From assembly GCF_001677475.2 (NCBI RefSeq), contig NZ_CP015229.1: DNA of 64,000 bases, one strand, 5' to 3'. Below the pieces are notes generated by a model, which did no database searches, was not told the origin of the DNA, and worked only from the letters and a program-made list of their open reading frames with translations. Positions 17,111 to 61,280 of this stretch are shown here, piece by piece. Origin of the DNA: Escherichia coli (GTDB lineage Bacteria > Pseudomonadota > Gammaproteobacteria > Enterobacterales > Enterobacteriaceae). A program made the translations under genes and the position numbers. The number at the start of each line of letters is the position of its first letter. Position 1 is the stretch's first letter.

Positions 17111-17118
17111 GAATCCTT

Positions 17119-22550: not shown

Positions 22551-22551
22551 C

Positions 22552-24576
<2,025 letters not shown>

Positions 24577-24581
24577 TCAAT

Positions 24582-24606: not shown

Positions 24607-24637
24607 TTCGAAGAGGAGTTAATTTGCCTTAAGTGTA

Positions 24638-25636
24638 TCAGGCGTTGGCGTCTTTGACTTCGCGGATGATGTCCTGGTACTCGCGCAATTTCTGCGGAGT
24701 CATCATACGGCGCTGATCGTCAAGCACTACACCGCCCACTTCATCGGCAATATGCTGCGCAGATTGCAGCATCAGCTTGAAGTTCTGCAGCTCGTCACCG
24801 TAAGACGGTACCTGCATAAAGATAGTGACACCCGGAGTAGTGAAATCCTTCATTTCAGGATCAAAGGTTCCCGGTTTCACCATATTCGCCAGGCTAAATA
24901 ACGCCGGGCCGCTGCCATCCGGGCTAAGATGACGATGGTAAATATTCATATCGCCAAAAATGAAGCCCGCTTGTTGAATGCTGTTAAGAAGCAGTTCACC
25001 GTTTAGCTCGCTACCGTGATGCGCCGCGACGTTCATGATAATCACCGCTTCTTTGCGCTTCGGTTTATCCATAACTGGAGCCGGTTCCGCTACAGGCTCA
25101 GGCTGTGGTGCCGCTACAGGCTCTGCAGGCTGGAAAGCCTGTTGTGCCGGTTGCGGTGCTGAATGCACTGGCTGCGGCGCTGATGCGACCTGTGGCGAAA
25201 CTGGCTGCTGCAACGGCTGTTCAGGCTGCGGCTGATAGGCAGGCTGCTGCACGGGTTGCTGCACCGGCTGCGCTGGACGCGGAGCATGTTGCGGCGGTAC
25301 CTGCGCTTCAGGCGGCTGCTGGACCGGTTGACGCGGCTGTGCAGACGCATAAGGCGGTTGGTACTGGTGTTGCGGCGACGGACGAGCAGCCTCATGCTCC
25401 TGGGCGTTAGCCGGGGCATGATTCACGCGGTGAACACGAACCTCACCAACGCCCTCATCATCTTCGACATCCTCGTCATAAGAATCGTCGTCACGTTTTG
25501 ACTTCATTCGTTTTAATGGCCGATCGCGGAACATAGAAGATCGTTCTTTACGGCTGGTCCAGAAACCATGTACCAGTAAAGCGATTATGGCGATCGCGCC
25601 AACAATGATTAATATCAGACGCAAATCCTGCATCAT
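24638..25636 (-). CDS. zipA: Cell-division protein ZipA
   Basis: ORF track 349 aa; start chosen at [26 protein letters not shown] (N-terminal TM anchor), long P/Q-rich linker, C-terminal FtsZ-binding domain. Confidence 0.9.
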
Positions 25637-25865
25637 TATATTCTCTGTTGTTCTAACACCTTGCCACCACGGCAAACATTTACTCACTAAGAGTATTTGC
25701 CGATTACCTCAAGTGCAAGTGCACTATTAACTTTCACAGCACAAAGATAGATGAAATCGTGCTTTTTGCTGTTTTTTCGAACATATCCTAACTGTCCATT
25801 GCGCAATTACCCGGTAAAATACGCAGAATTTTCCTGGGATTGGTCAAAAGGAGCTCATCCTGATT

Positions 25866-26627
25866 ATGGTTTCATCATTCACATCTGCCCCACGCAGCGG
25901 TTTTTACTATTTTGCGCAAGGCTGGAAGCTCGTCTCGCAACCTGGGATTCGGCGTTTCGTTATTTTACCGCTGCTGGTCAATATTTTGTTGATGGGGGGC
26001 GCATTCTGGTGGCTCTTTACGCAACTCGATGTCTGGATCCCGACTCTCATGAGTTATGTTCCGGACTGGTTACAATGGCTGAGCTATCTGTTGTGGCCTC
26101 TGGCTGTCATCTCTGTGCTGTTAGTGTTTGGCTATTTCTTCTCAACGATTGCTAACTGGATTGCCGCTCCGTTCAATGGTTTATTGGCTGAACAACTGGA
26201 AGCACGATTGACTGGCGCTACACCGCCAGATACCGGGATTTTCGGTATCATGAAAGATGTGCCGCGAATCATGAAACGCGAATGGCAAAAATTTGCCTGG
26301 TATCTGCCGCGCGCAATTGTATTGCTAATTCTTTACTTCATCCCTGGTATTGGGCAAACCGTCGCGCCGGTACTGTGGTTCCTGTTTAGCGCCTGGATGT
26401 TAGCCATCCAGTATTGCGATTACCCCTTCGATAACCACAAAGTGCCGTTTAAAGAGATGCGCACCGCCCTGCGCACACGCAAAATCACCAATATGCAGTT
26501 TGGTGCTTTAACCAGTCTGTTTACGATGATCCCTCTGCTTAATCTGTTCATCATGCCCGTTGCCGTTTGTGGTGCGACGGCGATGTGGGTCGATTGCTAT
26601 CGCGATAAACACGCGATGTGGCGGTAA
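25866..26627 (+). CDS. cysZ: Sulfate transporter CysZ
   Basis: 253 aa; [39 protein letters not shown]. Confidence 0.95.
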
Positions 26628-26811
26628 CAATCTACCGGTTATTTTGTAAACCGCTTGTGTGAAACAGGGGTGGCTTATGCCGCCCCTTATTCCATCTTGC
26701 ATGTCATTATTTCCCTTCTGCATATAGATATGCTAAATCCTTACTTCCGCATATTCTCTGAGCGGGTATGCTACCTGTTGTATCCCAATTTCATACAGTT
26801 AAGGACAGGCC

Positions 26812-27783
26812 ATGAGTAAGATTTTTGAAGATAACTCGCTGACTATCGGTCACACGCCGCTAGTTCGCCTGAATCGCATCGGTAACGGACGCATTCTGGC
26901 GAAGGTGGAATCTCGTAACCCCAGCTTCAGCGTTAAGTGCCGTATCGGTGCCAACATGATTTGGGATGCCGAAAAACGCGGCGTGCTGAAACCAGGCGTT
27001 GAACTGGTTGAACCAACCAGCGGTAATACCGGGATTGCACTGGCCTATGTCGCTGCCGCTCGCGGTTACAAACTTACCCTGACCATGCCAGAAACCATGA
27101 GTATTGAACGCCGCAAGCTGCTGAAAGCGTTAGGTGCAAACCTGGTGCTGACCGAAGGTGCTAAAGGCATGAAAGGCGCAATCCAAAAAGCAGAAGAAAT
27201 TGTCGCCAGCAATCCAGATAAATACCTTCTGCTGCAACAATTCAGCAATCCGGCAAACCCTGAAATTCACGAAAAAACCACCGGTCCGGAGATCTGGGAA
27301 GATACCGACGGTCAGGTTGATGTATTTATTGCTGGCGTTGGCACTGGCGGTACGCTGACCGGCGTCAGCCGCTACATTAAAGGCACCAAAGGCAAGACCG
27401 ATCTTATCTCTGTCGCCGTTGAGCCAACCGATTCTCCAGTTATCGCCCAGGCACTGGCTGGTGAAGAGATTAAACCTGGCCCGCATAAAATTCAGGGTAT
27501 TGGCGCTGGTTTTATCCCGGCTAACCTCGATCTCAAGCTGGTCGATAAAGTCATTGGCATCACCAATGAAGAAGCGATTTCTACCGCGCGTCGTCTGATG
27601 GAAGAAGAAGGTATTCTTGCAGGTATCTCTTCTGGAGCAGCTGTTGCTGCGGCGTTGAAACTACAAGAAGATGAAAGCTTTACCAACAAGAATATTGTGG
27701 TTATTCTACCATCATCGGGTGAGCGTTATTTAAGCACCGCATTGTTTGCCGATCTCTTCACTGAGAAAGAATTGCAACAGTAA
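26812..27783 (+). CDS. cysK: Cysteine synthase A (O-acetylserine sulfhydrylase A)
   Basis: 323 aa; [24 protein letters not shown]...[10 protein letters not shown] (PLP lysine motif). Confidence 0.97.
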
Positions 27784-31652: not shown

Positions 31653-32112
<460 letters not shown>

Positions 32113-41545: not shown

Positions 41546-41635
41546 TGAAACGGACAATGCTCTATCTTTCTCTGCTGGCTGTTAGCTGCAGCGTCAGCGC
41601 CGCAAAATACCCTGTTCTGACAGAAGGTAGTTGAT
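41546..41635 (+). pseudogene. yfeW: 29-codon ORF encoding only a signal-peptide-like sequence; probable 5' remnant of yfeW (PBP4B)
   Basis: MKRTMLYLSLLAVSCSVSAAKYPVLTEGS then stop; in the reference gene order a ~430 aa penicillin-binding protein follows murP here, but only ~180 bp separate murP and yfeX in this window. Confidence 0.5.
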
Positions 41636-41663
41636 CAAGTATATGCGGCGTTAAAGCAGTAAT

Positions 41664-41700
41664 AAAAAGGCCAGTCAGTAATGTTACTGCCTGGCCTTTA
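41664..41700. terminator. Bidirectional terminator hairpin before the yfeX stop
   Basis: AAAGGCCAG-TCAGTAATGTTACTGC-CTGGCCTTT long inverted repeat. Confidence 0.7.
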
Positions 41701-46203: not shown

Positions 46204-47256
46204 TCACCCCCATTCCCGCATCCGCTGATGCAACGTCAACGACGGCTTCTCGGCAAACAGCTGCTGGTAATCCGTGGCAAATTGCCCCAGATGCCAGAAT
46301 CCCCACTGCATGGCGGCGTCTTTTACCGTTGTGCTTTGCGACCACGGGCTTATCAGTTCGCGGCGTACGGCATTCAGGCGAATGCGTTTCAGCCACGCGT
46401 TCGGGCCAATGCCTAAAATAGCGTGAAACGCGTTTTGTAGCGTGCGGCGACTGACATGCAGTTGATTACACAAATCCAGCACCGTCACCGGTTCGGACAT
46501 GTTTTCCAGCACATATTCACGGGCGCGGGAAAGTAATCTACGGTAACTCTGATGACTGATGCTTTCCGCCGTCACCATTGGTTGCGCTTCTTCCAGCATC
46601 GCCCCCATCGCCATTAGCAAATTATCCCCCAGCACTTTTCGCACTGCAGGCTGATGGAGATTTTCCGGGTTCTCGCAAAACGTCGCCAGCGCCTGTTGGA
46701 CAAAGCCCCACAGCGCGGCTTTATGCTGCTCTTTCACTTCCAGCGCCGACTGGCTACGCAGCATATGTAATACCCGATCCGGATTATGCAAAAAGTTAGC
46801 CTGACGGGTGATGACATCTTCAGAAAGCACTACGCCCAGGATCGTGTAATCGTCCGGCGTACTTAATTCAAACTCAGTGCCACCGGGGCGCGTCGCTATT
46901 TCTGCGCTTCCCAGACATTGCGAACCGATAAATCCCTGCTCACCGCGCGTCGCCGGAATGCCAAACCAGAACGAGTTCGGCCAGACCAGGCACGACTGAC
47001 GCAGTGCCAGACCGGTGTATTCACGAAAAACCTGAATATCATCGAGTAGAATTTCCGTAAATTCACCATGAAACTTGCCCGGATGCAGCTGATCGTAAAT
47101 CTGCTGCCAGGCGGTAATCGTTAAAGCATGTTCATAGACATCCGTTGTCTGTCGTTGATGAACATTATCCACTTCGACCTTCGGCGTGAGCTTCAGGTTT
47201 TCGGGTAAGGGTTCATGATAAAGATGGTGCAAATTGGCTGTACGGGTCTTTTTCAT
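46204..47256 (-). CDS. eutR: AraC-family activator of the eut operon
   Basis: 350 aa; C-terminal AraC HTH; stop is 5 bp from the convergent hemF stop. Confidence 0.95.
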
Positions 47257-47301
47257 GATGTTAATGCCAGGTGTTGTAGGACACCCGGCACCTCCGACAG
47301 G

Positions 47302-47802
47302 TTAATGGGGCTTGAGACGATAACGACTACTGCGTTTACGTAACGTCCCGGCAGAAAAGAGCTGTTCGAGCGCATTTCTGGCTTTTTCCAGCGGCCAGCC
47401 AAAGTGGGCAGCCACTTCTCCTGCCGTCATTCCCTGACGTACTGATGTTAACAGCGCCAACAACTCGTCAGCAGATTCCGCGACGATAACTGGCGCGTCG
47501 GGTTCCTTTACGGGTTGCTTCGGCTGGCGGTTAAAGCCAGTAACCAGCCACTGGGTGTCATCGTCTGGCCGACCGATCTCCTTACGGCTGATGACACGCC
47601 CGGTACGCATCGCGGCAGCACAACCTGCGTCCAGCGCAGCACGACACGCCGCCAGATCGCCTTCCACCACCAGCGTTAAGCGACCAGGGTCAAGCACTTC
47701 GTGACTGAGCAGACGAACGTTAGCTGCTTTGAGCATGGCATCCGCTGCATCTATCGCGGCGACCATGCCGTCCACTTCCAGCAATCCCAGTGCATTGATC
47801 AT
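47302..47802 (-). CDS. eutK: Microcompartment shell protein EutK (BMC domain plus C-terminal nucleic-acid-binding-like domain)
   Basis: MINALGLLEVDGMVAAIDAADAMLKAANVRLL (BMC fold); start 47802 or 47808. Confidence 0.92.
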   Translation of the reverse strand: MINALGLLEVDGMVAAIDAADAMLKAANVRLLSHEVLDPGRLTLVVEGDLAACRAALDAGCAAAMRTGRVISRKEIGRPDDDTQWLVTGFNRQPKQPVKEPDAPVIVAESADELLALLTSVRQGMTAGEVAAHFGWPLEKARNALEQLFSAGTLRKRSSRYRLKPH

Positions 47803-47814
47803 CGGCAACCTCCA

Positions 47815-48474
47815 TTACGCACGCTGGATTGGATTACGCGCGATTTCCAGCACTGCATCGGTAAAGGCGTTACAGGCCGCTTTACACGCTGCCTGGCTAC
47901 CGGTTAAAAATGCTGCCGAGTAGTTAGTTTCAGACGGTGGCGGGACATAGGTCACCAGCTGTACGTCGGCAGATTTCAGGGCTGCATCAATGCCGTAGGT
48001 CGCTTCCAGCGGCGGTGCCACCAGATACGCCATCGGATCGCCAAGCGTGATCCCGGCGGTTGATGAGAGATAAGAACCGGTACGCGAAACTACATGTGCC
48101 AGGAAGGCTGTATTTTCTGCGTCATTAGCCCACTGGAAAGCAGCGCCATTTTCAATATGCGCAACCATCGCATCCAGACCTGCACGCACTTCCGCCGGGT
48201 TTGGCCCACCAAGCATAATCAGCACTTCACCGGCAGTCGGTGACGGTCCGTGTGCAGCGCCCGCATACAGCGAGCGACCATACACCACTTCGACCATCGC
48301 CTGTTTGGTCGCTTCGTCAGCCGCAATGTAGGTTACGTCATCGGAGTCGGCAGAAATCAGCCCGAGGCTACGAATATGCGGCGGCAATTTCAGTTCACGC
48401 GCAAATTCGGCGTTAACGGAGGCAATCACCCGCATGGCGGTGACAGACGGTCGAATCAAATCTAAAGCTGGCAT
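47815..48474 (-). CDS. eutL: Microcompartment shell protein EutL (tandem BMC domain)
   Basis: 219 aa. Confidence 0.95.
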
Positions 48475-48483
48475 GATGCCTCC

Positions 48484-49371
48484 TTATCGGGTCATGTTGA
48501 TGCCGGATGCTTTCTGCTCCAGCATACGTTTCGCCAAATCCACAATGACGGCTGCGGCTTCAACCGGCGGTGTGCCGCCCTGGTGAATGTTAGAGATACA
48601 GGTGCGATCGGCCTCAACGGTGGTCGCCATACGCGGCGAGTAAACGGCGTAGCAGGAGAGGCTTTCTGACTGCCCTAATCCCGGGCGTTCGCCCACCAGC
48701 AGGATCACCACTTTCGCGCCGAGGATCTCACCGATCTGATCTTCAATCTTCACGCGACCATAACGAACAAAGAATGGCGTACCGACTTTCAGCCCGGCCT
48801 GTTTCAGGCCCGCCATCAGCGGCGGCAGGATCTCTTCGTAGTTCACGGTGATCGCATCAGTTGACAGGCCATCAGAAATAACGACCTGCACGTCCGGATT
48901 GGCAACACACTGCGCTTTCAGCGCTTCAACAGCTTCTGCACTCAGGCGGCGGCCCATATCCGGGCGAGTCAGGTAGAGATTTTTGTCGCTAATTTCAGAG
49001 CGTACTTCCAGCAAGCCCTGCGCTTTCACCCACTCTTCCGGCACTTCTTTAAGTACGGTATCTTTCGAACGAGAGTGATCGGCCAGGAAACGCAGCAACG
49101 CCTGGGTACGCGGACGCGGACCGGCACGACCGGTACAAACGCGGGCCACGGTGCTGCGACGCAGTTCTGTTAACACATCCGCACGATGTGGGTTTTCAAC
49201 ACCAATCCACGCTTTTGCTTCCGCAGAACCTAAATCCAGCGCGCAGCTTTCCGAGGTCACCGATGCCGCACAGGTGGTGGTGGCGCACTTTGCTTCTGAC
49301 GGCTCGGGGGCCGTTTGTCCCATTGACGCCATCACGCTGCGTACAATTTCTTCAATCTGTTTTTGATCCAT
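48484..49371 (-). CDS. eutC: Ethanolamine ammonia-lyase small subunit
   Basis: 295 aa; [18 protein letters not shown]. Confidence 0.96.
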
Positions 49372-49391
49372 GATGTGTTATCTCCGCGTCA

Positions 49392-50753
49392 TCAGAAGAA
49401 CAGTGACGGATCGCCCGCCCGTTTGGTCAGGCGACCGTTTGCCATAATGCCCATGCTTTCCAGCCAGCGCTCAAACTCCGGTGACGGGCGCAGGTTGAGT
49501 AACTGACGCACAGTGGCAGTGTCGTGGAAGGCCGTGGTCTGGTAGTTGAGCATGATGTCATCGCCTAACGGCATCCCCATGATGTAGTTGCAGCCTGCGG
49601 TGGCGAGCAGGATCATCAGGTTTTCGTTGAGGTTCTGGTCAGCGTCAGCGTGGTTGGTGTAACAGCAGTCACAGCCCATAGAGATGCCGCTCAGCTTGCC
49701 CATAAAGTGATCTTCTAAGCCCGCACGGATAATCTGACGGTCATTGTAGAGATACTCCGGCCCAATAAAGCCGACCACGGTGTTGACGATAAACGGATCG
49801 TAATGACGCGCCAGCCCATAGTTACGTGCTTCCATCGTCACCTGGTCTGCGCCGAAGTTAGCGCCAGCGGATAGCGCTGAACCTTGTCCGGTTTCGAAGT
49901 AGAGGCAGTTTTCCCCGGCGATACGGTTGAACTCTGCACCCACTGCGCGCGCTTCGTCGAGCATCGCCAGTTCCACACCAAACTCTTTCAGCCCTTTTTC
50001 ACTGCCACAGATACTCTGGAAAATCAGCCCGCCTGGTGCGCCACGACGAATCGCTTCGATCTGGGTGGTGACGTGCGCCAGTACGCAGCCCTGAGTTGGG
50101 ATGTTGAATTTGTCGATCACGCTATAGATGGTGTCCAGCACGCGGCTTAAGTTTTCCACGTCGTCAGTTACCGGGTTGACGCCGATCACCGCATCGCCCA
50201 CCCCGAAGGAAAGCCCTTCGTAGATTTGCGCGGCGATACTTTGCACGTCGTCACGGGTGTCATTTGGCTGCAAACGGGCGCTGAAGGTGCCCGGAATACC
50301 GATGGTGGTATTGGCCTTTTTGATTACCGGCATTTTCTTCGCGCCGTAGATCAGGTCCGCGTTGGAGCAAATCTTCGCTACCGCCGCGACCACTTCCGAG
50401 GTCAGCCCTTTGCGGGTAAAGGCAATGTCGTCCACGCTGGTTTCATCGCTCAGCACATACTCACGCAGTTCGCTGATGCTCCAGTTTTTAATCTGGTTGT
50501 AGGCCGTTTCGTTAACGTCGTCCTGAATCAGCCGCGTCACGCAGTCATCTTCATAGGCAATCACCGGATTATTGCGGATGTCCGCTACGGTCATTTCCGA
50601 CAACACCTGCTTTGCCGCCACGCGCTCCTGTGAGCTTGCCGCTGCAACGCCTGCCAGCACATCCCCCGAACGCAGTTCGTTGGCTTTAGCCAGCACCTCT
50701 TTTACATCCTTAAACTGATATACATTGCCGAACAATGTGGTCTTTAGTTTCAT
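49392..50753 (-). CDS. eutB: Ethanolamine ammonia-lyase large subunit
   Basis: 453 aa; MKLKTTLFGNVYQFKDVKEVLAKANELRSGDVLAG. Confidence 0.97.
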   Translation of the reverse strand: MKLKTTLFGNVYQFKDVKEVLAKANELRSGDVLAGVAAASSQERVAAKQVLSEMTVADIRNNPVIAYEDDCVTRLIQDDVNETAYNQIKNWSISELREYVLSDETSVDDIAFTRKGLTSEVVAAVAKICSNADLIYGAKKMPVIKKANTTIGIPGTFSARLQPNDTRDDVQSIAAQIYEGLSFGVGDAVIGVNPVTDDVENLSRVLDTIYSVIDKFNIPTQGCVLAHVTTQIEAIRRGAPGGLIFQSICGSEKGLKEFGVELAMLDEARAVGAEFNRIAGENCLYFETGQGSALSAGANFGADQVTMEARNYGLARHYDPFIVNTVVGFIGPEYLYNDRQIIRAGLEDHFMGKLSGISMGCDCCYTNHADADQNLNENLMILLATAGCNYIMGMPLGDDIMLNYQTTAFHDTATVRQLLNLRPSPEFERWLESMGIMANGRLTKRAGDPSLFF

Positions 50754-50764
50754 AAGTCGTTCCC

Positions 50765-52168
50765 TCAGGAAGGAAATGCGAGTGATTTCACCGTCACCGG
50801 CACAACCGATCCGCCAAAAAGAGGCGTACCAATGTCGATATAGTCCCCCGCGCGGACAATCACTTCGTCAATGACTGCCAACGGGAGTTGTTGTAGCTGT
50901 GGGCGCAATAACATGCCCAGAGCTTTACCAAAGTCCTGCCCGGCCACCACCAGCAGGGGATGCGGATTCGGAAAACGCGCGACGAAATCGACCAGCGCGT
51001 TGATGACCGTCAGTACCGCGGCGTAACGCACAGGCAGCGAGGCGGGAAGCGCCAGCACGTACGCGTCAGTTTTGGGATCAAGATCCAGCTGAATCAGCGC
51101 CTGTTGCCAGGCACTCACCAGATCCGTTTCATCAATCGGGATCGCCACCGGCAAATTGCGCAGCGGCAGTTGTACGCCCTCCAGCCAGATTGTGCTGCCA
51201 GAGAGCGAAAGGGTATGTGCACCCGCGCCAATCACCGTGGCGCGTACGGTTTGCGCCGGAAACTGCACATTCATCTCACGCAGGCGCGGATGGTCATGCA
51301 GCGCCGTTGCCAGAAGTGGGCCAATATCGGCAAAACAGAACGGGTCGGCGGGCTGGTGGCGATAACATTCGCCCACGCCGCCAGAAAGCGTAATGATTTC
51401 GGGCGTAACACCTGTGGGCAGCAAACCGGTTTGCATCAATGCCTGCGCGAGCGGCGAGAGCGTTCCGTCAATCACTTCGACAATCAGTTCTGCCATCCGC
51501 CGGGTAACCTGCACCAGCTGCGCGCCGGTCAGCGAACGGACGTCAGTGCCTGCACCGAAGCACTCATCCACAATCATCTGCCCCGGTTTATGAGCGTAAA
51601 CCACGCGCCCCTGGCTGTCGGTTTCCAGCAGGCGACCACCGACGTTGAGGCAGGCAGTGCCGCTGATTTTTCCGGCATCGAACAGGGCGTAGTTCGCGGT
51701 GCCACCGCCGATGTCGATATTCAGTACCCGACACAGCCGTTGTTCAGAAAGGGTTTGCGCCCCGGCACCGTGACCAGCGATTACGGATTCGAGGTGCGGC
51801 CCGGCGCTGGCGACGACAAAATCGCCCAGCGACTGAGAGAGCGCCATCACCGCCAGGCGAGCATTGCGGGTTTTCGCGCTTTCACCGGTGATGATGATGG
51901 CACCAGAATCAACGCTTTCCGGCGCAATTCCCGCTGCCTGATATTGCTCTAAAATCAGCGATTTCAGTTCCGCTTCTTTTAAACCACCCTGTTTATCGAC
52001 AGGGGTAAAGAACACCGGGCTTTGCCAGCTAATTTCGCGTTTGATGAATTCGTAGCGCGGCACCTGCGACACCGCCGCACGGTTAACCAGCTCCAGGTGG
52101 GAGAAAATCACCTGGGTGGTGGTGGTGCCGATATCGATACCGACGCTCAGTAGCTGGCGAGTGTTCAC
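50765..52168 (-). CDS. eutA: Ethanolamine ammonia-lyase reactivase EutA
   Basis: 467 aa; MNTRQLLSVGIDIGTTTTQVIFS (ASKHA-like ATPase); 11 bp downstream of eutB with no insertion. Confidence 0.96.
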   Translation of the reverse strand: MNTRQLLSVGIDIGTTTTQVIFSHLELVNRAAVSQVPRYEFIKREISWQSPVFFTPVDKQGGLKEAELKSLILEQYQAAGIAPESVDSGAIIITGESAKTRNARLAVMALSQSLGDFVVASAGPHLESVIAGHGAGAQTLSEQRLCRVLNIDIGGGTANYALFDAGKISGTACLNVGGRLLETDSQGRVVYAHKPGQMIVDECFGAGTDVRSLTGAQLVQVTRRMAELIVEVIDGTLSPLAQALMQTGLLPTGVTPEIITLSGGVGECYRHQPADPFCFADIGPLLATALHDHPRLREMNVQFPAQTVRATVIGAGAHTLSLSGSTIWLEGVQLPLRNLPVAIPIDETDLVSAWQQALIQLDLDPKTDAYVLALPASLPVRYAAVLTVINALVDFVARFPNPHPLLVVAGQDFGKALGMLLRPQLQQLPLAVIDEVIVRAGDYIDIGTPLFGGSVVPVTVKSLAFPS

Positions 52169-53391
52169 GATTGTGCCTCCGCTTCGGTTTTAGCCGTTGC
52201 CGCGTCTTCTTTTGGCACCAGCATCATCGCCACGCCAATCGCCGTGACGCCGCCGATAAGCTTGCCGACAATCATCGGGAAGATCATGGCGTTCATGTTG
52301 GCAGCGGCGAAGCCTAAGTGGTCGCCCAGGGCGAAAGCAGCGGAAACGGCGAAGGCGCAGTTGATGACTTTGCCGCGGGTATCCATCTGCTTCATCATGC
52401 CAAACATCGGGATGTTGTTGGCAAGCGTTGCCACCATGCCGGCTGCCGCGATGTTGTTCATATTCAGCACTTTACCGACGCTCATCAGCGGTTTTTCAAA
52501 CCAGCGGGTCAGCAGCAGCACCATCGGATACGCCCCTAACAGAACGCAGGAGATAGAACCGATAACTTCAATGGCGCGCATCACCTCACCGGGTTTATCG
52601 CCAGGGGCCATAAAGATAGGATCCAGACCGGGGATCAGTTCCCAGCCAAGCAGGAATTTCACTACCGCAGCGGCAAGACCGAGGGTGATCAATGCAACGA
52701 GGAATTTGGCAAAGATCTGGAAGCCGTTGATCATTTTTTCCGGGATGAATTTCAGCCCCAGCGCCACCAGAATCGCGACAATGATCACCGGGATCATGTT
52801 CATCAGGATCAGGGCGAAAGTGAAATCCACCGGCTGACCGTTGATCTGTACACCGGAGTACATCGCTACCAGACCACCAGCGATACAACCAATCGGAATG
52901 GTCACAATGCCCGCCAGCACGCCGAGCGCCAGATAACGACGGTCAGAAGGTTCGATAATGCCGAGCGCCACCGGAATGGAAAACACAATCGTTGGCCCCA
53001 TCATCGACCCGAGAATTAACCCAGAGTATAGCCACGCGGCTACGTCGCCGCCCGCCAGCTCTTTGGCGAGGAAGAAGCCGCCCATATCGCACGCCAGCAG
53101 TGTTCCGGCGAACATCGATGGGTTAGCGCCGAGCATTTCGTAAACCGGAATAATTACCGGCCCGAGTACGTGGGCCAGTACCGGTGCCAGCGCGGTCATA
53201 CCGACCATCGCCAGGCCCAGTGCGCCCATTGCCATAAAGCCTTCTTCGAACTGACCGCCTGATCCTTCGATACTTTTACCGAACTTACCGAGGAAACGAG
53301 CAGAACCGCCGAACTGCGACAGGATCCTGTCTACGGCAGCTATCAGCATAAAGAACATCATGATGTACATGATGATTTCGTTAATTCCCAT
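52165..53391 (-). CDS. eutH: Ethanolamine permease/facilitator EutH
   Basis: 408 aa polytopic membrane ORF; 4-nt overlap with eutA. Confidence 0.95.
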   Translation of the reverse strand: MGINEIIMYIMMFFMLIAAVDRILSQFGGSARFLGKFGKSIEGSGGQFEEGFMAMGALGLAMVGMTALAPVLAHVLGPVIIPVYEMLGANPSMFAGTLLACDMGGFFLAKELAGGDVAAWLYSGLILGSMMGPTIVFSIPVALGIIEPSDRRYLALGVLAGIVTIPIGCIAGGLVAMYSGVQINGQPVDFTFALILMNMIPVIIVAILVALGLKFIPEKMINGFQIFAKFLVALITLGLAAAVVKFLLGWELIPGLDPIFMAPGDKPGEVMRAIEVIGSISCVLLGAYPMVLLLTRWFEKPLMSVGKVLNMNNIAAAGMVATLANNIPMFGMMKQMDTRGKVINCAFAVSAAFALGDHLGFAAANMNAMIFPMIVGKLIGGVTAIGVAMMLVPKEDAATAKTEAEAQS

Positions 53392-53421
53392 CGCCTTTAC
53401 TCCCTGTTAGTTGTTATTTAT

Positions 53422-53506
<85 letters not shown>

Positions 53507-53507
53507 T

Positions 53508-54695
53508 TTATTGCGCCGCTGCGTACAGACCGACAATCTGTTCCAGGCTGGCGGTACGCGGGTTGCTGCGCAGACAAATATCTTCCTGCGCGGCCTGCGC
53601 CCATGCGCCGTAATGTCCGGTGGTTGCACCCACGTCTGCCAGCCGCTTGTTGATCCCGACTTCCGCAATCAGCTCACTTACCGCGTTAATAGCGTCACGA
53701 TCGTCGGATTTTTTAGTTCGCAGCGCCCGACCAATCTGACTAAACCGATCACGACAAACCATCCGGTTAAATTCCATCACCGTTGGCAGCAACATGGCGT
53801 TCGCCAGACCGTGTGGAATATGCAGCGCCGCCCCTGGCTGATGCGCCATCGCGTGGCACAACCCAAGTCCGGCACTGGAAAACGCCATTCCCGCCATACA
53901 TGAAGCCAGCAACATGCTCTCGCGCGCGGCAAGGTCATGACCGTAGCCCACCGCTTTCGGCAGTGATTTGCCAATCATCGCAATGGCACCAATCGCCAGA
54001 CTGTCGGTAAACGGTGTGGCGTTCAGCGCGCTGTACGCTTCAATGGCATGGGTTAACGCATCAATGCCAGTCATCGCCGTGACATGCGACGGCACACCTT
54101 CGGTCAATGCGGCGTCGAGGATCGCCACATCCGGCATCAGCGAGGCATGGGCTAACACCTGCTTGCGCCCGCTCACCGCGTCAATAATCACCGTTACGTT
54201 GGTGGTTTCAGAGCCGGTTCCGGCGGTCGTTGGAATGGCAATCAGCGGCAAGCGCGGTTGCAGAACGCTGGTTTCTGACATCTCTGCCAGCGTGCTATCC
54301 GGGTTCGTCACCAGCAACGCCACGGCTTTTGCTGCATCCAGCACCGAGCCGCCGCCAAACGCGATCAACCCATCACAGCCTGATTCACGCAACTGCGCCA
54401 CGGCTGCACACACGTCGGTGATGCACGGTTCGCCCACCGGACATGGCCAGAGCGTCATGGCGATACCTTTAACGGCCAGGCTGCGCGTCAGCCCGGCGGT
54501 CATCCCTGCCTGATGCAAAAAGCTGTCTGCCATCACGAACAGATGTTTCAGCCCACGCGTTTGCGCTTGCTGCCCGCAACTGCTCACCGCGCCCGGACCG
54601 CAAAGCGTCACCGGTGGAACGCTAAATGTTTTTACCCGTTGCAGATTCAGGGTATCGAACGCCTGAAAGAGCGCGGTCTGCAATTCATTTTGCAT
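53508..54695 (-). CDS. eutG: Iron-containing alcohol dehydrogenase EutG
   Basis: 395 aa. Confidence 0.95.
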   Translation of the reverse strand: MQNELQTALFQAFDTLNLQRVKTFSVPPVTLCGPGAVSSCGQQAQTRGLKHLFVMADSFLHQAGMTAGLTRSLAVKGIAMTLWPCPVGEPCITDVCAAVAQLRESGCDGLIAFGGGSVLDAAKAVALLVTNPDSTLAEMSETSVLQPRLPLIAIPTTAGTGSETTNVTVIIDAVSGRKQVLAHASLMPDVAILDAALTEGVPSHVTAMTGIDALTHAIEAYSALNATPFTDSLAIGAIAMIGKSLPKAVGYGHDLAARESMLLASCMAGMAFSSAGLGLCHAMAHQPGAALHIPHGLANAMLLPTVMEFNRMVCRDRFSQIGRALRTKKSDDRDAINAVSELIAEVGINKRLADVGATTGHYGAWAQAAQEDICLRSNPRTASLEQIVGLYAAAQ

Positions 54696-55521
54696 ATAGC
54701 CCCTCCGCTTTTTCTCGCCCGCTACTGGCGATCGCCAGCGGGGTCATAAACAAACTGTGCTGCGGTAAATGCACCTGTAACGCCGGGAATTGTTTGCGAA
54801 ACAGTTCCGCCACGCCCGGTTGCATACAAGAGCCGCCCGCCAGCCATAAATCAGTAATGCCCTGCCCTTCAATATGCCGGGCAACAATGTCCGCCATTTT
54901 TTCGTACACCGGTTTCACCGCGGGCCAAATCTCTTCACCGTGACCGCGCTTGTACTGCTCTGCCTCTTCCAGCGAAATACGACGATTTCCGGCGAGAGTC
55001 AGAGAGATGTGATGTCCGCCAGTGGCTTCATCCGCCGAGTACGTCACCTTGCCCTTTTTCACGATGGCAATGCCGGTAGTGCCACCGCCGATATCCACTA
55101 CGCCTGCGTTATCCAGTTGCAGCAGATCCGCGACTGCGGTTGGCTCATCCAGCACATGGCTCACTTCCAGTCCGGCAGACTCCAGCACGTTGATGGAAAT
55201 ACGCGGGTCCGTACCTGGAGGAAAAGAGGTCGCCGCATGGCTAAAACGGCGACCGAATTGCTGCTCGAGGGTGTCGAGATGGCGACGAACAATGGTGACC
55301 GCACCGAAGAAATCCCAGACGATGCCGTCGCGGACCACATCAGCCCAGTCGAGGCATACCGCCACCGGCTGACCGTCGCGGTCAACAACCATCGACACCA
55401 CATCGCAGGTGCCCAGATCCACCCCCAGCCACAGCGGAGATTCCGTCGCGGCAGGCGTCTGGTTACACAGCGTTGCCGCTATGTGCAGACGTGGGGTGAG
55501 CCATTGTTCGTCGTGCGCCAT
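54685..55521 (-). CDS. eutJ: Chaperone-like protein EutJ (Hsp70/actin-fold ATPase)
   Basis: 278 aa; 11-nt overlap with eutG. Confidence 0.95.
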   Translation of the reverse strand: MAHDEQWLTPRLHIAATLCNQTPAATESPLWLGVDLGTCDVVSMVVDRDGQPVAVCLDWADVVRDGIVWDFFGAVTIVRRHLDTLEQQFGRRFSHAATSFPPGTDPRISINVLESAGLEVSHVLDEPTAVADLLQLDNAGVVDIGGGTTGIAIVKKGKVTYSADEATGGHHISLTLAGNRRISLEEAEQYKRGHGEEIWPAVKPVYEKMADIVARHIEGQGITDLWLAGGSCMQPGVAELFRKQFPALQVHLPQHSLFMTPLAIASSGREKAEGLYAK

Positions 55522-55531
55522 CTGTTACTCC

Positions 55532-56935
55532 TTAAACAATGCGAAACGCATCGACTAATACACAGCGACGCAGACGGACAAACGTCCGCGCGCTGGTTAC
55601 CCCTTCACCGGTTGGCGTGGTGATGGTCATGGTGGTCCAGCCTTCCCCGCCCAGCCCCAGCCCGGCAATACACGGTCCGTTCTTAACGAAAATGCTGGTA
55701 TCAATGGCATTCGCCATCTGGTTCATGTTCTCGATATTGCGCGAGTGCATTGCCGCCGTGTGGTGGCAACCGCCTTCCAGTTTCACCGCCAGCGCAATGG
55801 CATCCGCCACGTTGGCGACGCGCACGACGGGCAGCACCGGCATCATCAGTTCAGTCACAGCAAACGGATGTTCTGCGGTGGTTTCTACAAACAGCAGTCG
55901 CGTTTGTTCCGGAACTTTAAGGCCGATTGCCGCCGCGATTTTCGCCGCATCGCGACCAACCCAGTCACGGCTGACGGTGCCTTTTCCGCGCTCGTCGATA
56001 TTTTTCAGCAACACCGGTTGCAGCTGCTGCGCCTGCTCTGCGGTCAGTTTCACCGCGTGCTGGCCTTCCATCAGACGCATCAGTTCATCGGCTACGCTAT
56101 CCACAACAATCAGTACCTTTTCGTCGGCACAAATGATGTTGTTATCGAAAGACGCGCCTTTGACGATGGACTGAGCAGCACGGGCGAGGTCAGCGGTTTC
56201 ATCCACCACTACCGGCGGGTTGCCAGCGCCTGCGGCAATCAGACGTTTATTGGTGTGTTTACGCGCCGCTTCTACTACCGCTTCGCCGCCGGTCACCACC
56301 AGAAGGCCGATGCCCGGAAACTTGAACAAACGTTGCGCGGTTTCGATATCCGGATTGGCCACGGTCACCAGTAAGTTTTCCGGCCCGCCTGCAGCAACAA
56401 TTGCCCGGTTGAGCAGCGTAATCGCTCGCTGAGAGACTTTTTTCGCCGCCGGATGCGGGGCAAAAATGACGCTGTTGCCCGCAGCAATCAGGCTGATGGC
56501 GTTATTAATAACGGTCGCCGCCGGGTTAGTGGACGGCGTTACCGAAGCCACCACGCCCCAGGGCGCGTTTTCAATTAGGGTCAGGCCGTTGTCGCCGGTC
56601 AGCACCTGCGGAGAGAGGCACTCAACGCCTGGTGTGCCGCGCGCCTGAGCGACGTTTTTGGCAAATTTATCTTCGACGCGCCCCATGCCGGTTTCACTGA
56701 CGGCAAGTTCCGCTAAATCTCTGGCGTGTTTTTCGCCTGCTTCACGAATGGCAACAATGGCTAACTGGCGCATTGCCACGCTCTTTAACCCTTGCTGGGC
56801 AATTTTGGCTGCCGCAACGGCGTCATCCAGGGACGCGAAAACGCCCATCTCATGAACGGCGGCGGGCGGCGTATCACTGCTTTGCATTTTCAGCAGTACC
56901 GCTTTCACCACCTGTTCAATATCCTGTTGATTCAT
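55532..56935 (-). CDS. eutE: Acetaldehyde dehydrogenase (CoA-acylating) EutE
   Basis: 467 aa; MNQQDIEQVVKAVLLKMQSS. Confidence 0.96.
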   Translation of the reverse strand: MNQQDIEQVVKAVLLKMQSSDTPPAAVHEMGVFASLDDAVAAAKIAQQGLKSVAMRQLAIVAIREAGEKHARDLAELAVSETGMGRVEDKFAKNVAQARGTPGVECLSPQVLTGDNGLTLIENAPWGVVASVTPSTNPAATVINNAISLIAAGNSVIFAPHPAAKKVSQRAITLLNRAIVAAGGPENLLVTVANPDIETAQRLFKFPGIGLLVVTGGEAVVEAARKHTNKRLIAAGAGNPPVVVDETADLARAAQSIVKGASFDNNIICADEKVLIVVDSVADELMRLMEGQHAVKLTAEQAQQLQPVLLKNIDERGKGTVSRDWVGRDAAKIAAAIGLKVPEQTRLLFVETTAEHPFAVTELMMPVLPVVRVANVADAIALAVKLEGGCHHTAAMHSRNIENMNQMANAIDTSIFVKNGPCIAGLGLGGEGWTTMTITTPTGEGVTSARTFVRLRRCVLVDAFRIV

Positions 56936-56946
56936 GATGTTCTGCC

Positions 56947-57234
56947 TTATTTGTGGAAAATTACCTGACCGCCAGACACCACCTCATCGACGATGCCAAT
57001 CACGCACAGATCGACCGGTGACGTTTCGCTTTTATGCGCCTGGCGGGCGGAACTGCCACTCACCAGCAACACCCACTCCCCGGTTCCCGCGCCAATATTG
57101 TCGATGGCGACGGCACATTGCCCGTCAGGATTACCTTGTGGATCAATCATTTCCACCATCAGCAATTTGTCATGCGCCAGTCCGTGATGGCGTACGGTAC
57201 AAACAATTTGTCCAGTGACGACTGCCAGTTTCAT
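56947..57234 (-). CDS. eutN: Microcompartment vertex protein EutN
   Basis: 95 aa; MKLAVVTGQIVCTVRHHGLAHDKLLMVEMI (EutN/CcmL fold). Confidence 0.95.
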   Translation of the reverse strand: MKLAVVTGQIVCTVRHHGLAHDKLLMVEMIDPQGNPDGQCAVAIDNIGAGTGEWVLLVSGSSARQAHKSETSPVDLCVIGIVDEVVSGGQVIFHK

Positions 57235-57340
57235 ACCCGCCTCCGTGGCGTATTTCAGGTAAAAGCTCCCCCTACCCTCCGCGGAAGGTAAAATGAAAAA
57301 TGAGAGAGCGTGACGCCCGAATCGACGTCACACAGGGTGA

Positions 57341-57634
57341 TTACAGGTTGCTGCTATCGCCTTTCAGGCCGATCGGGAAAACTTCTTCCAGGTCGCCGTG
57401 CGGGCGCGGGATAACATGTACAGATACCAGCTCGCCGATACGCTGTGCCGCTGCGGCACCGGCATCGGTCGCCGCTTTACAGGCTGCAACATCACCACGA
57501 ACCATAGCAGTACACAGGCCGCCGCCAATCTGCTTAACACCAACCAGTTTGACGCGCGCAGCTTTCACCATCGCGTCAGAAGCCTCAATCAGTGCAACCA
57601 GGCCCCGGGTTTCGATCATTCCTAATGCTTCCAT
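57341..57634 (-). CDS. eutM: Major microcompartment shell protein EutM (BMC domain)
   Basis: ORF track 111 aa; AGAGGA RBS supports start at [28 protein letters not shown] (97 aa). Confidence 0.95.
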
Positions 57635-57672
57635 TGTGCTTTCCTCTTTATCAGGGTCCAGAACGGGACCGT

Positions 57673-58689
57673 TCATTCAACCAGTGTTTGTAAACTGCTT
57701 TCGCGGTTCACTTCTGTCTGACGCGGCACAGCTGCCACCAGCGCCAGCTCGATAATTTCCTGCACGCTACAACCACGAGAGAGATCGTGCATCGGCGCGG
57801 CAAGTCCTTGTATCAATGGCCCGACGGCACGATATCCGCCGAGTCGTTGTGCGATTTTGTAGCCAATATTTCCGGCTTCCAGCGACGGAAAAACCATCAC
57901 ATTGGCCTTGCCTTGTAGCGGGCTGGCAGGCGCTTTTTGCGCCGCCACTTCCGGCACGAAGGCGGCGTCAAACTGCAACTCGCCATCGACTACCAACTGC
58001 GGCGCGCGCTCACGGACGATTTCTGTCGCCTGCTGGACGTTGGCAACGCAGGGGTGACGGGCGCTGCCGTTACTGGAAAACGACAACATCGCCACGCGCG
58101 GCTCTTCTCCGGTGATGGCGCGCCAGGTTTCGGCGCTGGCAAGCGCGATATCCGCCAACTGCGCCGCCGTCGGCTGTGGCACTACGCTGCAATCGGCAAA
58201 GCCCAATGCGGGGCCACTGTACTGTGGCAGCATCAGGAAAATGGAGGAGAGCGTTTTACAGCCTGGCTGTAAGCCAATAATGCGTAATCCGGCACGCAGC
58301 ACATTCGCCGTGGAAGAGAGATTGCCCGCGATACAGACATCCGCTGTCCCGGCGCTGACCATTGCGGCAGCGAACATCAGCGGATCGGTGAGTTTTTCCA
58401 GCGCATCCGGCGGCGTTTTTTCGCCCGCGCGGGCCAGCCAGCGATGAGCAAATTCTTCCCGCATTGCGAGGTTGCCATGCGGATCAATCACCTGTAGCCC
58501 GTCCATCGCCACGCCATGACTGAGCGCAAACTGACGAAGTTCAAACGGATTGGCGACCAGAATGGGCGTTGCCAGACCTTGTTGATGTAAATATTGCGCA
58601 GCTTTCAGCACACGTTGATCTAACGCATCCGGAAAAACTACTCTGGCGGGCGCTCGCAACGCCAGTTCACGACAACGTTCAATAATCAT
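57673..58689 (-). CDS. eutD: Phosphotransacetylase EutD
   Basis: 338 aa; [34 protein letters not shown]. Confidence 0.96.
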
Positions 58690-59489
58690 TGCGTTTCCCC
58701 CAGTCGTTGTTGGATCTGCTTCACCGTTAGCGGCTGCTTCGTTACGCTCAGGATCATCATCACGTAGACCGTGCTCGAAAGGCGGTTCAGTGCCTGCAAG
58801 ATGTCCGGGCGTAATACTTCAAAACTGCGGGTTATAAACACCTGCGCCGCTACGGTTTCGGTTTCCCGCACTTTGGTGCGTAGCAGATTGAGCAACGCAG
58901 CATCGCGCCCGTGGCTGGCTTCCGGCACCAGATGATCGTGGTCGAGATAGCGCAGCGGCTGGTGAGAAAGCCGATGCAGATCTTCGTCAGAAAGCCCGAC
59001 AATCGCTTGTTCGCCCAGCGGTTCCCCCAGCGCATCGGCGCGCATAATGTTGCCAAGACGCGAGCGGATGTCCGCCAGCCACGGCTGCCACGGTTCTGCC
59101 AGTTCAATTTGCAGCCACACTGCCAGCGCAATGGTGCTGTCGAGAACCGCGCGAAAACCCAGGCGCGGATCGCTTTTGGCGACCATTTTTTCCGCCGACA
59201 GGTGAGTCAGCGTATCCGGCTTTTTTGCCACCGGCTGGCGGCACAGTTCGCAGCACGCCTGCGGATGTTCATCGCTACTGGTCAGCCCGTGAACGGGCTG
59301 TGGCTGCTGCTGTTCATCGTCAACAAACAGGCGGCCCTGCTCGTCAATAAACTTGATGCGCAGATGGCGGCTTTCCAGTAACTCCCGGGCAGAGGGCGTC
59401 AGGCGACTGTGCGCAGGGAGATGGATCTCTGCGCCTTCGCTGAGCGTATGGTTCGCTCGTAGCCATGCTTCGGTGATGAAATCTTTCAT
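58686..59489 (-). CDS. eutT: Ethanolamine-utilisation corrinoid adenosyltransferase EutT
   Basis: 267 aa; 4-nt overlaps on both sides. Confidence 0.95.
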
Positions 59490-60187
59490 AGGGATTGCCA
59501 GTTAGCCGGCCAGGCGACATACAGGAATTTCACGCTGGATGTCGTGCCAAATTCGATGCTGGAGCCTTTCGGGATAAACATCACGTCGCCTGCTTTGGCG
59601 ATCATGGTTTCGCCTTCGTGGCGAACATGCAGTTCCCCTTCCAGCACCATGTCGATTTCGTCGTAGTTCAGGGTCCATGGGAAGAAGGCGTTCTCCCACT
59701 GCATAAAACCGGCGGCCATGCTACTGCCGTCATCTCCGGTGACCAGATCCGTTAATCCGACGCAGTGTGGCTGTGCGCCGTCGAAACGACCAAACTTGAC
59801 GCTGCTGCCATCAATCACTTTGATGCCGCCTTTGCCGGTCACCGATTTGAAGCTCGGCTGCATTGCCCCCTGCTCCAGCGACTGTTTTTCCTTCATCACT
59901 TTTTCCATCAGCTGCGCGACCAGGCTTTCGGTAAACTGGCCTTCCGGCAACTGGGCAATGATGGTTTCGCGGATGCGCTGGCTTTCGGTTTTATCGGCTG
60001 GCGCGCTGGCGGGAACAGACGCCGTTACCGGAGTCGATTCATCGCATTCGGTGATGGTAAAACCCAGTAGTTCCGCCACTTCACGGGCTTCCGGAGTAAT
60101 AATGCTGGCACGTAGAACCACGGACATTGCCTGTTCGCCGCGCGCGTGTGCTTCACGAATATCATTCGCTGTGATGAGTTTTTTCAC
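59486..60187 (-). CDS. eutQ: Cupin-fold protein EutQ
   Basis: 233 aa; MKKLITANDIREAHARGEQAMSVVLRASIITPEAR. Confidence 0.93.
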   Translation of the reverse strand: MKKLITANDIREAHARGEQAMSVVLRASIITPEAREVAELLGFTITECDESTPVTASVPASAPADKTESQRIRETIIAQLPEGQFTESLVAQLMEKVMKEKQSLEQGAMQPSFKSVTGKGGIKVIDGSSVKFGRFDGAQPHCVGLTDLVTGDDGSSMAAGFMQWENAFFPWTLNYDEIDMVLEGELHVRHEGETMIAKAGDVMFIPKGSSIEFGTTSSVKFLYVAWPANWQSL

Positions 60188-60641
60188 CTGCTTCCTCCTG
60201 TTTGGTGAGAGATGCCAGATAATCCACCAGTTGCTGCACGCTTTGCGGGTCGTGGCTGTTTAGCTCGAAAATCGGCTCTTCGAAGCCAGTCTCAAGCAAT
60301 AACTTTCGCGTTGCGGCGACGTCAGCATCTGGCATGTCCGTTTTACTGATGACGGCGATTTGCCGTTTGCTGACGCCAATATCCAGCAACCCGGCAGGCA
60401 ACCGACTTTCCGGGTCATTCGCGTCGTGGACATAGATCAGCATGTCCACATCCTGTAGCGTGGTAATTAAGGCGTGATACCAGCGGGGATGGCTAAAATA
60501 TTCACCTGGCGTATCAATATCACCCTTATTATTAAATTCCACAGCCTGCGTTTTTCGCGCGAGGGTATAATCCCCTTGCAACGCATTAAATAACGTTGTC
60601 TTTCCTGCTCCGACAGCACCCACAAACGCAATTCGTTTCAT
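60162..60641 (-). CDS. eutP: P-loop NTPase EutP
   Basis: 159 aa; Walker A GAVGAGKTT; 26-nt overlap with eutQ. Confidence 0.93.
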   Translation of the reverse strand: MKRIAFVGAVGAGKTTLFNALQGDYTLARKTQAVEFNNKGDIDTPGEYFSHPRWYHALITTLQDVDMLIYVHDANDPESRLPAGLLDIGVSKRQIAVISKTDMPDADVAATRKLLLETGFEEPIFELNSHDPQSVQQLVDYLASLTKQEEAGEKTHHSE

Positions 60642-60653
60642 GAATGCCTCGCA

Positions 60654-60989
60654 TTAACTTTTGGTCATTTCACAAAGCGTATAATTTAATAAGCGACCTA
60701 AACCACTGACAGTTTGTGATAACGCTTCTTCTACTGCACCCACCGAGCCATAAATCACCAGCGCGCCGCTAAAACGGTCGAGAAATCCGATATGCACATC
60801 GGCGGCTTTCAGCGCTAAATCACCGGCGATCATCGCCGTTTCGCCGGGAGTTAGCGTCATAATGCCGATTGCACCCGCATCCGGAACGCCGATTTTCTTC
60901 GCCAGTTCCTCGCCGGGATGCGCGATGAGATGCGCCAGTGTGACCTGTTTGCCGGGCACAAATTCTTGAATGATGCGTTCTTTATCCAT
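60654..60989 (-). CDS. eutS: Microcompartment shell protein EutS (permuted BMC domain)
   Basis: ORF track 135 aa; start chosen at [26 protein letters not shown] (111 aa). Confidence 0.9.
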
Positions 60990-61238
60990 GAGTCGCCGCC
61001 TGTGAAAAACTTGCGTGTATCGTGACAATTTTTCGTCAGAGTAAATAACAAAATTCGGCAAGCGCGTTTAAAAGGTGAGGTAGATCACTAAGAATGGAGA
61101 GATATTTACTGTTATGAATAAACTTTCATATGCGACGCATGAATATAAATAAAATAATATCGAGATATTTTATATACTGATTTTTTTATTATTCGCAAAC
61201 TCAGTAATAAGCTTTACTAATATATTGCAGCTAAACTG

Positions 61239-61262
61239 CTTACCCTGAATATTCAGGGTAAG
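61239..61262. other. Perfect 24-bp palindrome between the maeB stop and the eut promoter region (possible maeB terminator hairpin)
   Basis: CTTACCCTGA-ATAT-TCAGGGTAAG, 10-bp arms with a 4-nt loop, in an otherwise AT-rich intergenic region. Confidence 0.45.
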
Positions 61263-61280
61263 CGTGAGAGTTAAAAAAAA

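Follow-up and report, generated by a model that had tools for sequence, protein, structure and literature searches.

In Salmonella and Escherichia coli, transcription from a promoter upstream of eutS is switched on by the regulator EutR acting with ethanolamine and adenosylcobalamin, and the resulting polycistronic transcript encodes the shell proteins EutS, EutM, EutN, EutL and EutK of the ethanolamine-utilisation (Eut) microcompartment, as well as the B12-dependent lyase EutBC, the reactivase EutA, and EutE, EutD, EutG, EutT, EutH, EutJ, EutP and EutQ. The operon of Salmonella enterica, said to have been described by Kofoid et al. in 1999, reportedly comprises 17 genes in the order eutSPQTDMNEJGHABCLKR. 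In the annotation of E. coli K-12 MG1655 (NC_000913.3), an element named 'cryptic prophage CPZ-55' (2558691-2565480) lies between eutB (b2441) and eutA (b2451). The position of this element, the 8-bp duplication TCAGGAAG associated with it and its prevalence of 8% have been published (PMC6379469), and the eutB/eutA junction, which was intact in 46 of 47 uropathogenic E. coli (UPEC) strains, has been labelled a 'prophage insertion hot spot' (PMC6652756). Furthermore, in K-12 strain BW25113 eutS and eutR are inducible, while eutB is not induced and neither compartments nor growth on ethanolamine are observed; strain Nissle 1917, which was examined by growth assays, qPCR and electron microscopy, forms Eut microcompartments and grows on ethanolamine (PMC7617246). 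In this study, we analysed a 64-kb stretch of E. coli DNA (contig NZ_CP015229.1; the whole stretch is referred to as the window) which carries an eut operon with eutA and eutB lying side by side. The sequence points, with a probability of about 0.95, to a complete and apparently functional enterobacterial 17-gene eut operon, in which the bacterial attachment site (attB) of CPZ-55 is unoccupied and which thus represents the ancestral and commonest arrangement. Both the eut system and its prophage-free arrangement are already known, common and expected (PMC6379469, PMC6652756, PMC7617246).

The eut operon and its uninterrupted eutA/eutB junction

The open reading frame (ORF) listing and gene-by-gene mapping onto MG1655 identified the 17 genes eutSPQTDMNEJGHABCLK and eutR on the minus strand of the window at positions 46204-60989 (Table 1). 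All 17 genes have the lengths of their MG1655 counterparts, with a single terminal stop, no internal stops and no alignment gaps, and the amino acid identity of their products to those of MG1655 ranges from 96.2 to 100%. Additionally, each of the 17 products exceeds, over its full length, the curated NCBIfam cut-off of the matching Eut family. This applies to both subunits of the signature lyase, EutB and EutC; to the five shell proteins (hexameric EutM, EutK and EutS, pseudohexameric EutL and pentameric EutN), which pass equivalog or subfamily cut-offs; to the core pathway and cofactor-recycling enzymes EutE, EutD, EutG, EutA and EutT; and to the accessory proteins EutH, EutJ, EutP and EutQ and the regulator EutR, which pass equivalog models. 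The genes follow the canonical order eutSPQTDMNEJGHABCLKR on one strand between maeB and hemF, with eutR at the 3' end of the cluster and convergent with hemF; gene order and both neighbours match MG1655 and strain 2018-05-2CC. Furthermore, the whole locus can be aligned end to end, at approximately 97.5% identity, with thousands of E. coli genomes annotated from eutR to eutS. The original prediction, made from the letters of the window, of a complete and contiguous minus-strand set of 17 genes is therefore borne out by the mapping and the NCBIfam cut-offs, and family membership and published accounts agree with its statement that this is the known Eut microcompartment system and not a new one.

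The same prediction described tight spacing with overlaps of 4-11 nt. This holds for four overlaps, namely eutA/eutH (4 nt), eutG/eutJ (11 nt), eutD/eutT (4 nt) and eutT/eutQ (4 nt), but not for eutQ/eutP, which overlap by 26 nt, nor for the larger gaps between eutH and eutG (116 nt), eutN and eutM (106 nt), eutR and eutK (45 nt) and eutM and eutD (38 nt). Position 61061, previously given as the end of the locus, is the end of the longest TTG-initiated ORF and has to be replaced by 60989, the start homologous to that of annotated eutS. Many database entries from E. coli assemblies are EutH-EutA fusions of 763 or 674 aa (Pfam PF04346 and PF06277), which probably arose through frameshifts or sequencing errors where eutH and eutA overlap by 4 nt.

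At the eutA/eutB junction, the eutA stop codon ends at position 50765 and the eutB ATG lies at 50753, so that the predicted distance of 11 bp can be read directly from the sequence. The statement that CPZ-55 occupies this junction in MG1655 likewise agrees with the reference annotation: the element measures 6,790 bp and carries intZ and yffL to yffS in the orientation opposite to eut, and MG1655 hence does not present the same 11-bp junction free of a prophage. When the window was aligned across the junction to both MG1655 flanks, as the prediction had proposed, these flanks overlapped by 8 bp (50765-50772), and base-by-base comparison established that TCAGGAAG is duplicated at both ends of CPZ-55 in MG1655 and occurs as a single copy in the window, where it is continuous with the native sequence of both flanks. 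The presence of one copy therefore marks an empty attachment site. An extended 20-mer around this core occurs just once in the window, the CPZ-55 interval of MG1655 aligns nowhere in it, and no integrase or prophage genes are found between eutB and eutA. Judged by this comparison of sequences, the eutA/eutB junction is the empty attB of CPZ-55 and of IntZ-family elements, whose IntZ-type tyrosine integrases use the core TCAGGAAG.

To establish which state is ancestral, two outgroup sets were considered. The first consisted of 35 loci obtained by scanning GTDB species representatives with a degenerate pattern of the eutB N-terminus (Citrobacter, Klebsiella, Salmonella arizonae, Yokenella, Pluralibacter, Intestinirhabdus, Pseudocitrobacter, E. 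whittamii and other Escherichia), while the second contained ten loci picked by EutA protein alone and irrespective of the junction (S. enterica, an Enterobacteriaceae bacterium, four metagenome lineages, Buttiauxella, Entomohabitans, Photorhabdus and Hafnia). In the first set eutA ends 11 nt before eutB in every locus, and over both sets, which represent at least 14 genera, the spacer measures 11-12 nt in all 45 loci. Within E. coli, a 601-bp probe centred on the junction was contiguous in 4,963 of 5,426 complete RefSeq genomes (91.5%), a count that joins pieces up to approximately 800 bp apart and thus includes very small insertions as contiguous. These sequence comparisons support the view that the uninterrupted arrangement is ancestral, as had been predicted, and also by far the commonest state. 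The uninterrupted state, which the prediction had singled out as the point of interest, is consequently present and ancestral, but its interest is weak given the number of E. coli genomes that share it.

CPZ-55 proper was found in 213 genomes (at least 80% coverage and at least 99% identity), overwhelmingly K-12 laboratory derivatives. IntZ-like sequence is present in 417 genomes, of which some 200 beyond CPZ-55 have an integrase region 80-90% identical to intZ. An 11.4-kb island in strain TB354 (16295-27706 of its record) and a degraded 7.8-kb island in ECONIH5 (5051-12860) are both located at the eutB/eutA junction; flanking by the same 8-bp core was shown for TB354 alone of the two. The occurrence of distinct islands at one junction is consistent with the published hot spot label (PMC6652756). 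These islands carry an IntZ-like integrase, helix-turn-helix genes, a glutamate decarboxylase fragment, gadC, murI and insertion sequence (IS) elements, and eutR is frameshifted in TB354.

By analogy with the described operons, EutR in the presence of ethanolamine and adenosylcobalamin would act on a promoter upstream of eutS to yield one long transcript, which in the window could pass straight from eutA into eutB; as eutR is the last gene, induction would feed back positively on itself. Induction by ethanolamine and adenosylcobalamin, formation of microcompartments and growth on ethanolamine would accordingly be expected of this strain by the same analogy. In K-12, CPZ-55 would instead cut eutBCLK-eutR off from the main promoter. 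Certain points nevertheless weigh against the proposal of a functional operon. Its function in this strain is deduced from sequence, the promoter scan matched no sigma-70-like promoter upstream of eutS and hence did not locate the promoter here, and a divergence of approximately 2.3% from every complete RefSeq E. coli genome leaves room for subtle regulatory differences. A missing sigma-70 consensus fits an activator-dependent promoter, although it locates none. On the minus strand at 61230-61280, just past the maeB stop, the maeB-eutS spacer opens with a T-run and, after it, a perfect palindrome with an 11-bp stem, GCTTACCCTGAATATTCAGGGTAAGC, which may be a maeB terminator that shields eut from read-through.

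On this evidence, the strain has a normal wild-type eut operon and K-12 is the atypical reference, which calls for caution in annotation pipelines and metabolic models built on K-12. Models of this type predict ethanolamine catabolism, whereas BW25113 shows no eutB induction and no growth on ethanolamine (PMC7617246).

A conserved block around the attachment site

The attB core is situated, at -19 to -12 relative to the eutB ATG on the sense strand, within a block of approximately 100-200 nt (window positions ~50655-50851) that is nearly invariant, including at synonymous sites, across Escherichia, Salmonella, Citrobacter, Klebsiella, Pluralibacter and Pseudocitrobacter, while its flanks display normal wobble divergence of 15-25%. 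The 30 nt upstream of the eutB ATG are identical in 34 of the 35 species-representative loci, and Salmonella, Citrobacter, Klebsiella and the loci L042 and L043 have 0-4 differences in the 98 nt upstream of eutB as against 16-29 in the adjoining 102 nt. When 1,271 segments of 90 nt over 29 kb were ranked by identity to 30 non-Escherichia species, the block came first with 99.6%, compared to a mean of 82.4% (sd 5.2) for all segments. A segment wholly outside the stretch constrained by the search pattern also ranked first, with 98.2% (runner-up 95.3%). Loci that had been chosen by EutA behave similarly, with one difference per 98 nt in S. enterica (16 per 102 adjoining nt), none in L043 (27 per 102) and four in L042 (26 per 102). 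The downstream half of the block, in eutB, is less conserved in these EutA-chosen loci (11-18 differences per 100 nt), so that part of its conservation reflects ascertainment. The invariance weakens in ESL0689, L044 and L045 (10-16 differences per 98 nt) and is lost in Buttiauxella, Entomohabitans, Hafnia and Photorhabdus (22-27 per 98 nt), in which only the region from approximately -45 to -5 is conserved and the C-terminal peptide of EutA is retained at the protein level. The proposal that the CPZ-55/IntZ site lies inside an ultra-conserved element, comprising some 98 nt of eutA 3' end plus spacer and extending more weakly for some 98 nt into eutB, and for which no description was found, is doubtful and is put forward tentatively. 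Such a block would represent either a regulatory element so far overlooked in a well-studied operon or the footprint of element-driven homogenisation, and the simplest link with the attachment site would be that integrases target an unusually invariant sequence.

Several described types of element were sought in the block. At Rfam gathering thresholds only tRNAs were detected in the window, and nothing credible was found in 50400-51100 up to E = 10; a cobalamin riboswitch or another described RNA family at the junction was consequently rejected, there being no match to an Rfam covariance model. The promoter and terminator scan identified no sigma-70-like site at the junction, and a EutR box in the block was discarded as the similarity to the eutS upstream region did not rise above chance. 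Overlapping small ORFs on both strands have ends that do not match the block boundaries. No literature on a small RNA, an internal promoter or translational coupling at eutA/eutB was found.

As regards the junction only, it is possible, with the odds somewhat against it, that selection maintains the block as a cis-acting element of the eut mRNA and that integrases simply exploit its invariance. The high ranking of the block with and without the pattern-constrained stretch, its frozen synonymous sites and its near identity in the EutA-chosen S. enterica, L043 and L042 loci argue for this. A candidate for such an element is a predicted hairpin of 7 bp that would sequester the eutB Shine-Dalgarno sequence, together with structure upstream of it, and that may serve in coupling eutB to eutA or in determining how stable the two halves of the transcript are relative to each other. 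The modelled 7-bp hairpin suggests translational coupling of eutB to eutA, but it is so nearly invariant as to be beyond the reach of covariation; a longer predicted hairpin from -98 to -25 has a folding z of -2.1 and, like the 7-bp hairpin, is a point in favour of a cis-acting element. Against a structured element, the whole 211-nt junction region folds no better than shuffled sequence (z = -0.06), covariation in the block is at chance level (two pairs changed on both sides, matched by 333 of 500 shuffles) and several variable positions break predicted pairs. The lack of an Rfam match and of a promoter-like site at the junction, and the loss of invariance in Buttiauxella, Entomohabitans, Hafnia and Photorhabdus, also argue against a cis-acting element, as does the unevenness of conservation at equal EutA divergence, with no differences in L043 and 13-16 in L044 and L045. 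Were the block indeed kept by selection, it would constitute an unrecognised cis-regulatory element within the eut mRNA, with translational coupling or a control of processing that sets EutBC output as possible roles, and it would explain why the junction is an integration hot spot and why a K-12-type insertion disables the downstream half of the operon.

It is unlikely, again for the junction only, that the block was homogenised by repeated recombination with an integrating element that brings along a eutA 3' end in exchange for that of the host, in the manner of e14 at icd. Such replacement would agree with the status of the site as an integrase hot spot (PMC6652756), with the sharp edge of the block and its being identical in some lineages and ordinary in others of equal overall divergence, and with the weak resemblance of the phage-side arm of TB354 to the end of eutA. 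However, the sequence common to attL and attR is limited to 8 bp in both CPZ-55 and TB354, and the upstream edge of the block coincides with the start of the C-terminal EutA peptide, which even distant genera retain. Furthermore, the block was found on no phage or true plasmid record: the single IMG/VR match proved to be host DNA, and the PLSDB 'plasmid' NZ_CP134663.1 (L040), which matches the block at 100%, is a 4.9-Mb chromosome that is 97% identical to the window. The eutA 3' end is also almost never present as a second copy in E. coli (5,414 places in 5,409 records). The tests thus support neither a structured RNA nor the replacement of the eutA 3' end by a phage-borne copy on the e14/icd model.

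With respect to the empty site itself, a secondary reversion, in which an IntZ-type element integrated and was later excised precisely, is very improbable: the site is used repeatedly by different elements and scarless excision by a tyrosine recombinase would be invisible in sequence, but the window holds no remnant of phage DNA and no second copy of the core, and a never-occupied site is the simpler assumption because all 45 outgroup loci and 91.5% of E. coli genomes show the empty state. The uninterrupted, never occupied attB accordingly remains the preferred account of the junction.

Divergence of the window and further features

Over the 64 kb of the window, even the best match among the 5,426 complete RefSeq E. 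coli genomes reaches no more than 97.6-97.7% identity, and the differences are spread fairly evenly along the eut locus. Compared with MG1655, identity forms a mosaic that varies from 96.0 to 99.3% by segment, while other Escherichia species representatives are more distant (92.6-94.9%); a 6.5-kb stretch of the window is 100% identical to GCA_016118665.1, and exact copies of Eut proteins stand in GenBank as ANO90214-ANO90222 under the name Escherichia coli. A 26-mer specific to the window had no match among the GTDB species representatives, and the lineage is therefore not a species representative of its own. These values fit an origin of the window in a deep-branching E. coli lineage, possibly cryptic clade I, that the RefSeq complete set does not contain. 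Two GTDB species-representative records (L034 and L007) bear doubtful labels. 'Citrobacter sp. HRGM_Genome_0066', a GTDB representative, is 96.7% identical to this Escherichia window, and its label looks wrong; 'E. coli SCPM-O-B-8794', at only 92.6% identity, probably belongs to another Escherichia species.

The spacer between eutH and eutG measures 116 nt in the window as against 216 nt in MG1655, where a unit of approximately 100 nt is tandemly duplicated; window positions 53422-53519 align to the two adjacent MG1655 copies of this repetitive extragenic palindromic (REP) unit. A related REP unit, 78% identical, is located at window positions 7482-7577.

Outside the eut locus, the window lacks IS186C of MG1655 (~10399-10410), approximately 0.96 kb with yfeS (~32106-32110) and approximately 1.4 kb with most of yfeW (pbp4b; ~41625-41668). 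Positions 12825-12900 hold one tRNA-Ala(GGC) where MG1655 has alaX and alaW, and positions 15599-15874 hold two tRNA-Val(UAC) and one tRNA-Lys where MG1655 has valU, valX, valY and lysV. Additionally, coverage of window positions 1-24000 in one place reaches 80% or more in only 84 of the 5,426 E. coli genomes, though all share the genes of this stretch, which is likely due to indels or rearrangements around the nupC-pdeA-tRNA region.

Table 1. Features of the eut locus and of the eutA/eutB junction (window coordinates; identities are amino acid identities to MG1655; scores are bits against the NCBIfam cut-off)
Feature	Position	Strand	Details
eutR, AraC-type activator of operon	46204-47256	-	350 aa; 99.1% identity; NF007522 (equivalog) 790 vs 319
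eutK, shell protein	47302-47802	-	166 aa; 99.4% identity; NF012010 362 vs 218
eutL, shell protein	47815-48474	-	219 aa; NF011934 402 vs 198; TIGR04502 335 vs 300
eutC, ethanolamine ammonia-lyase small subunit	48484-49371	-	295 aa; 98.3% identity; NF003971 340 vs 230
eutB, ethanolamine ammonia-lyase large subunit	49392-50753	-	453 aa; 99.8% identity; NF011649 665 vs 554
eutA-eutB spacer	50754-50764	-	11 nt, GGGAACGACTT on sense strand; holds eutB Shine-Dalgarno; read from sequence
Near-invariant block	50754-50851	-	Last 29 eutA codons, stop and spacer (-98 to -1 of eutB ATG); weaker to ~+98 (50655)
Predicted 7-bp hairpin UUUCCUU/GAGGGAA	50760-50776	-	eutB Shine-Dalgarno paired with last eutA codons and stop; minimum-free-energy fold
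Unoccupied attB core of CPZ-55/IntZ-family elements	50765-50772	.	TCAGGAAG; overlaps eutA stop and preceding codons
eutA, lyase reactivase, GTG start	50765-52168	-	467 aa; 98.1% identity; NF007991 1069 vs 799
eutH, ethanolamine permease	52165-53391	-	408 aa; NF011665 872 vs 574
eutH-eutG intergenic region	53392-53507	.	REP-type palindromes, one ~100-nt unit; inverted repeats detected
eutG, alcohol dehydrogenase	53508-54695	-	395 aa; NF011998 885 vs 556
eutJ, chaperone-like protein	54685-55521	-	278 aa; NF011660 400 vs 182
eutE, acetylating acetaldehyde dehydrogenase	55532-56935	-	467 aa; NF011927 736 vs 403
eutN, shell vertex protein (pentameric)	56947-57234	-	95 aa; 100% identity; NF011992 210 vs 118
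eutM, major hexameric shell protein	57341-57634	-	97 aa; 100% identity; NF012018 213 vs 133
eutD, phosphotransacetylase	57673-58689	-	338 aa; NF007233 410 vs 310
eutT, corrinoid adenosyltransferase	58686-59489	-	267 aa; NF011595 567 vs 226
eutQ, GTG start	59486-60187	-	233 aa; NF012001 501 vs 193
eutP	60162-60641	-	159 aa; NF012011 346 vs 258
eutS, shell protein, first gene of operon	60654-60989	-	111 aa; 100% identity; NF012012 247 vs 123
maeB-eutS intergenic region, expected site of EutR-dependent main promoter	60990-61280	-	Placed by established Salmonella/E. coli operon knowledge

Comparison with described eut loci

The eut locus of K-12 MG1655 (b2437-b2462) shares with the window 17 genes of equal length, whose products are 96-100% identical, and the flanking genes hemF and maeB; it differs in the presence of CPZ-55 between eutB and eutA with the duplicated TCAGGAAG, and of the second REP unit of approximately 100 nt between eutH and eutG. 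Other IntZ-family islands, namely those of TB354 and ECONIH5 and that of strain U71 (PMC6652756), occupy the same eutB/eutA junction with 7.8-11.4 kb of DNA that encodes an integrase with approximately 85% identity to intZ and cargo genes including gadC and murI, whereas the site in the window is empty.

The S. enterica operon has the same gene set and order around the stretch examined (locus L041, eutG-eutH-eutA-eutB-eutC), and shares with the window the 4-nt eutH/eutA overlap and the 11-nt eutA-eutB spacer. Its junction block is near-identical (one difference in 98 nt and two in 100 nt), while EutA diverges by approximately 10% in amino acids and the nucleotide sequence outside the block by approximately 16%. 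The uninterrupted eut operons of commensal and pathogenic E. coli, such as Nissle 1917, UPEC and enterohaemorrhagic E. coli (EHEC), share the architecture of the operon in the window, and the window differs from all of them by a nucleotide divergence of approximately 2.3%.

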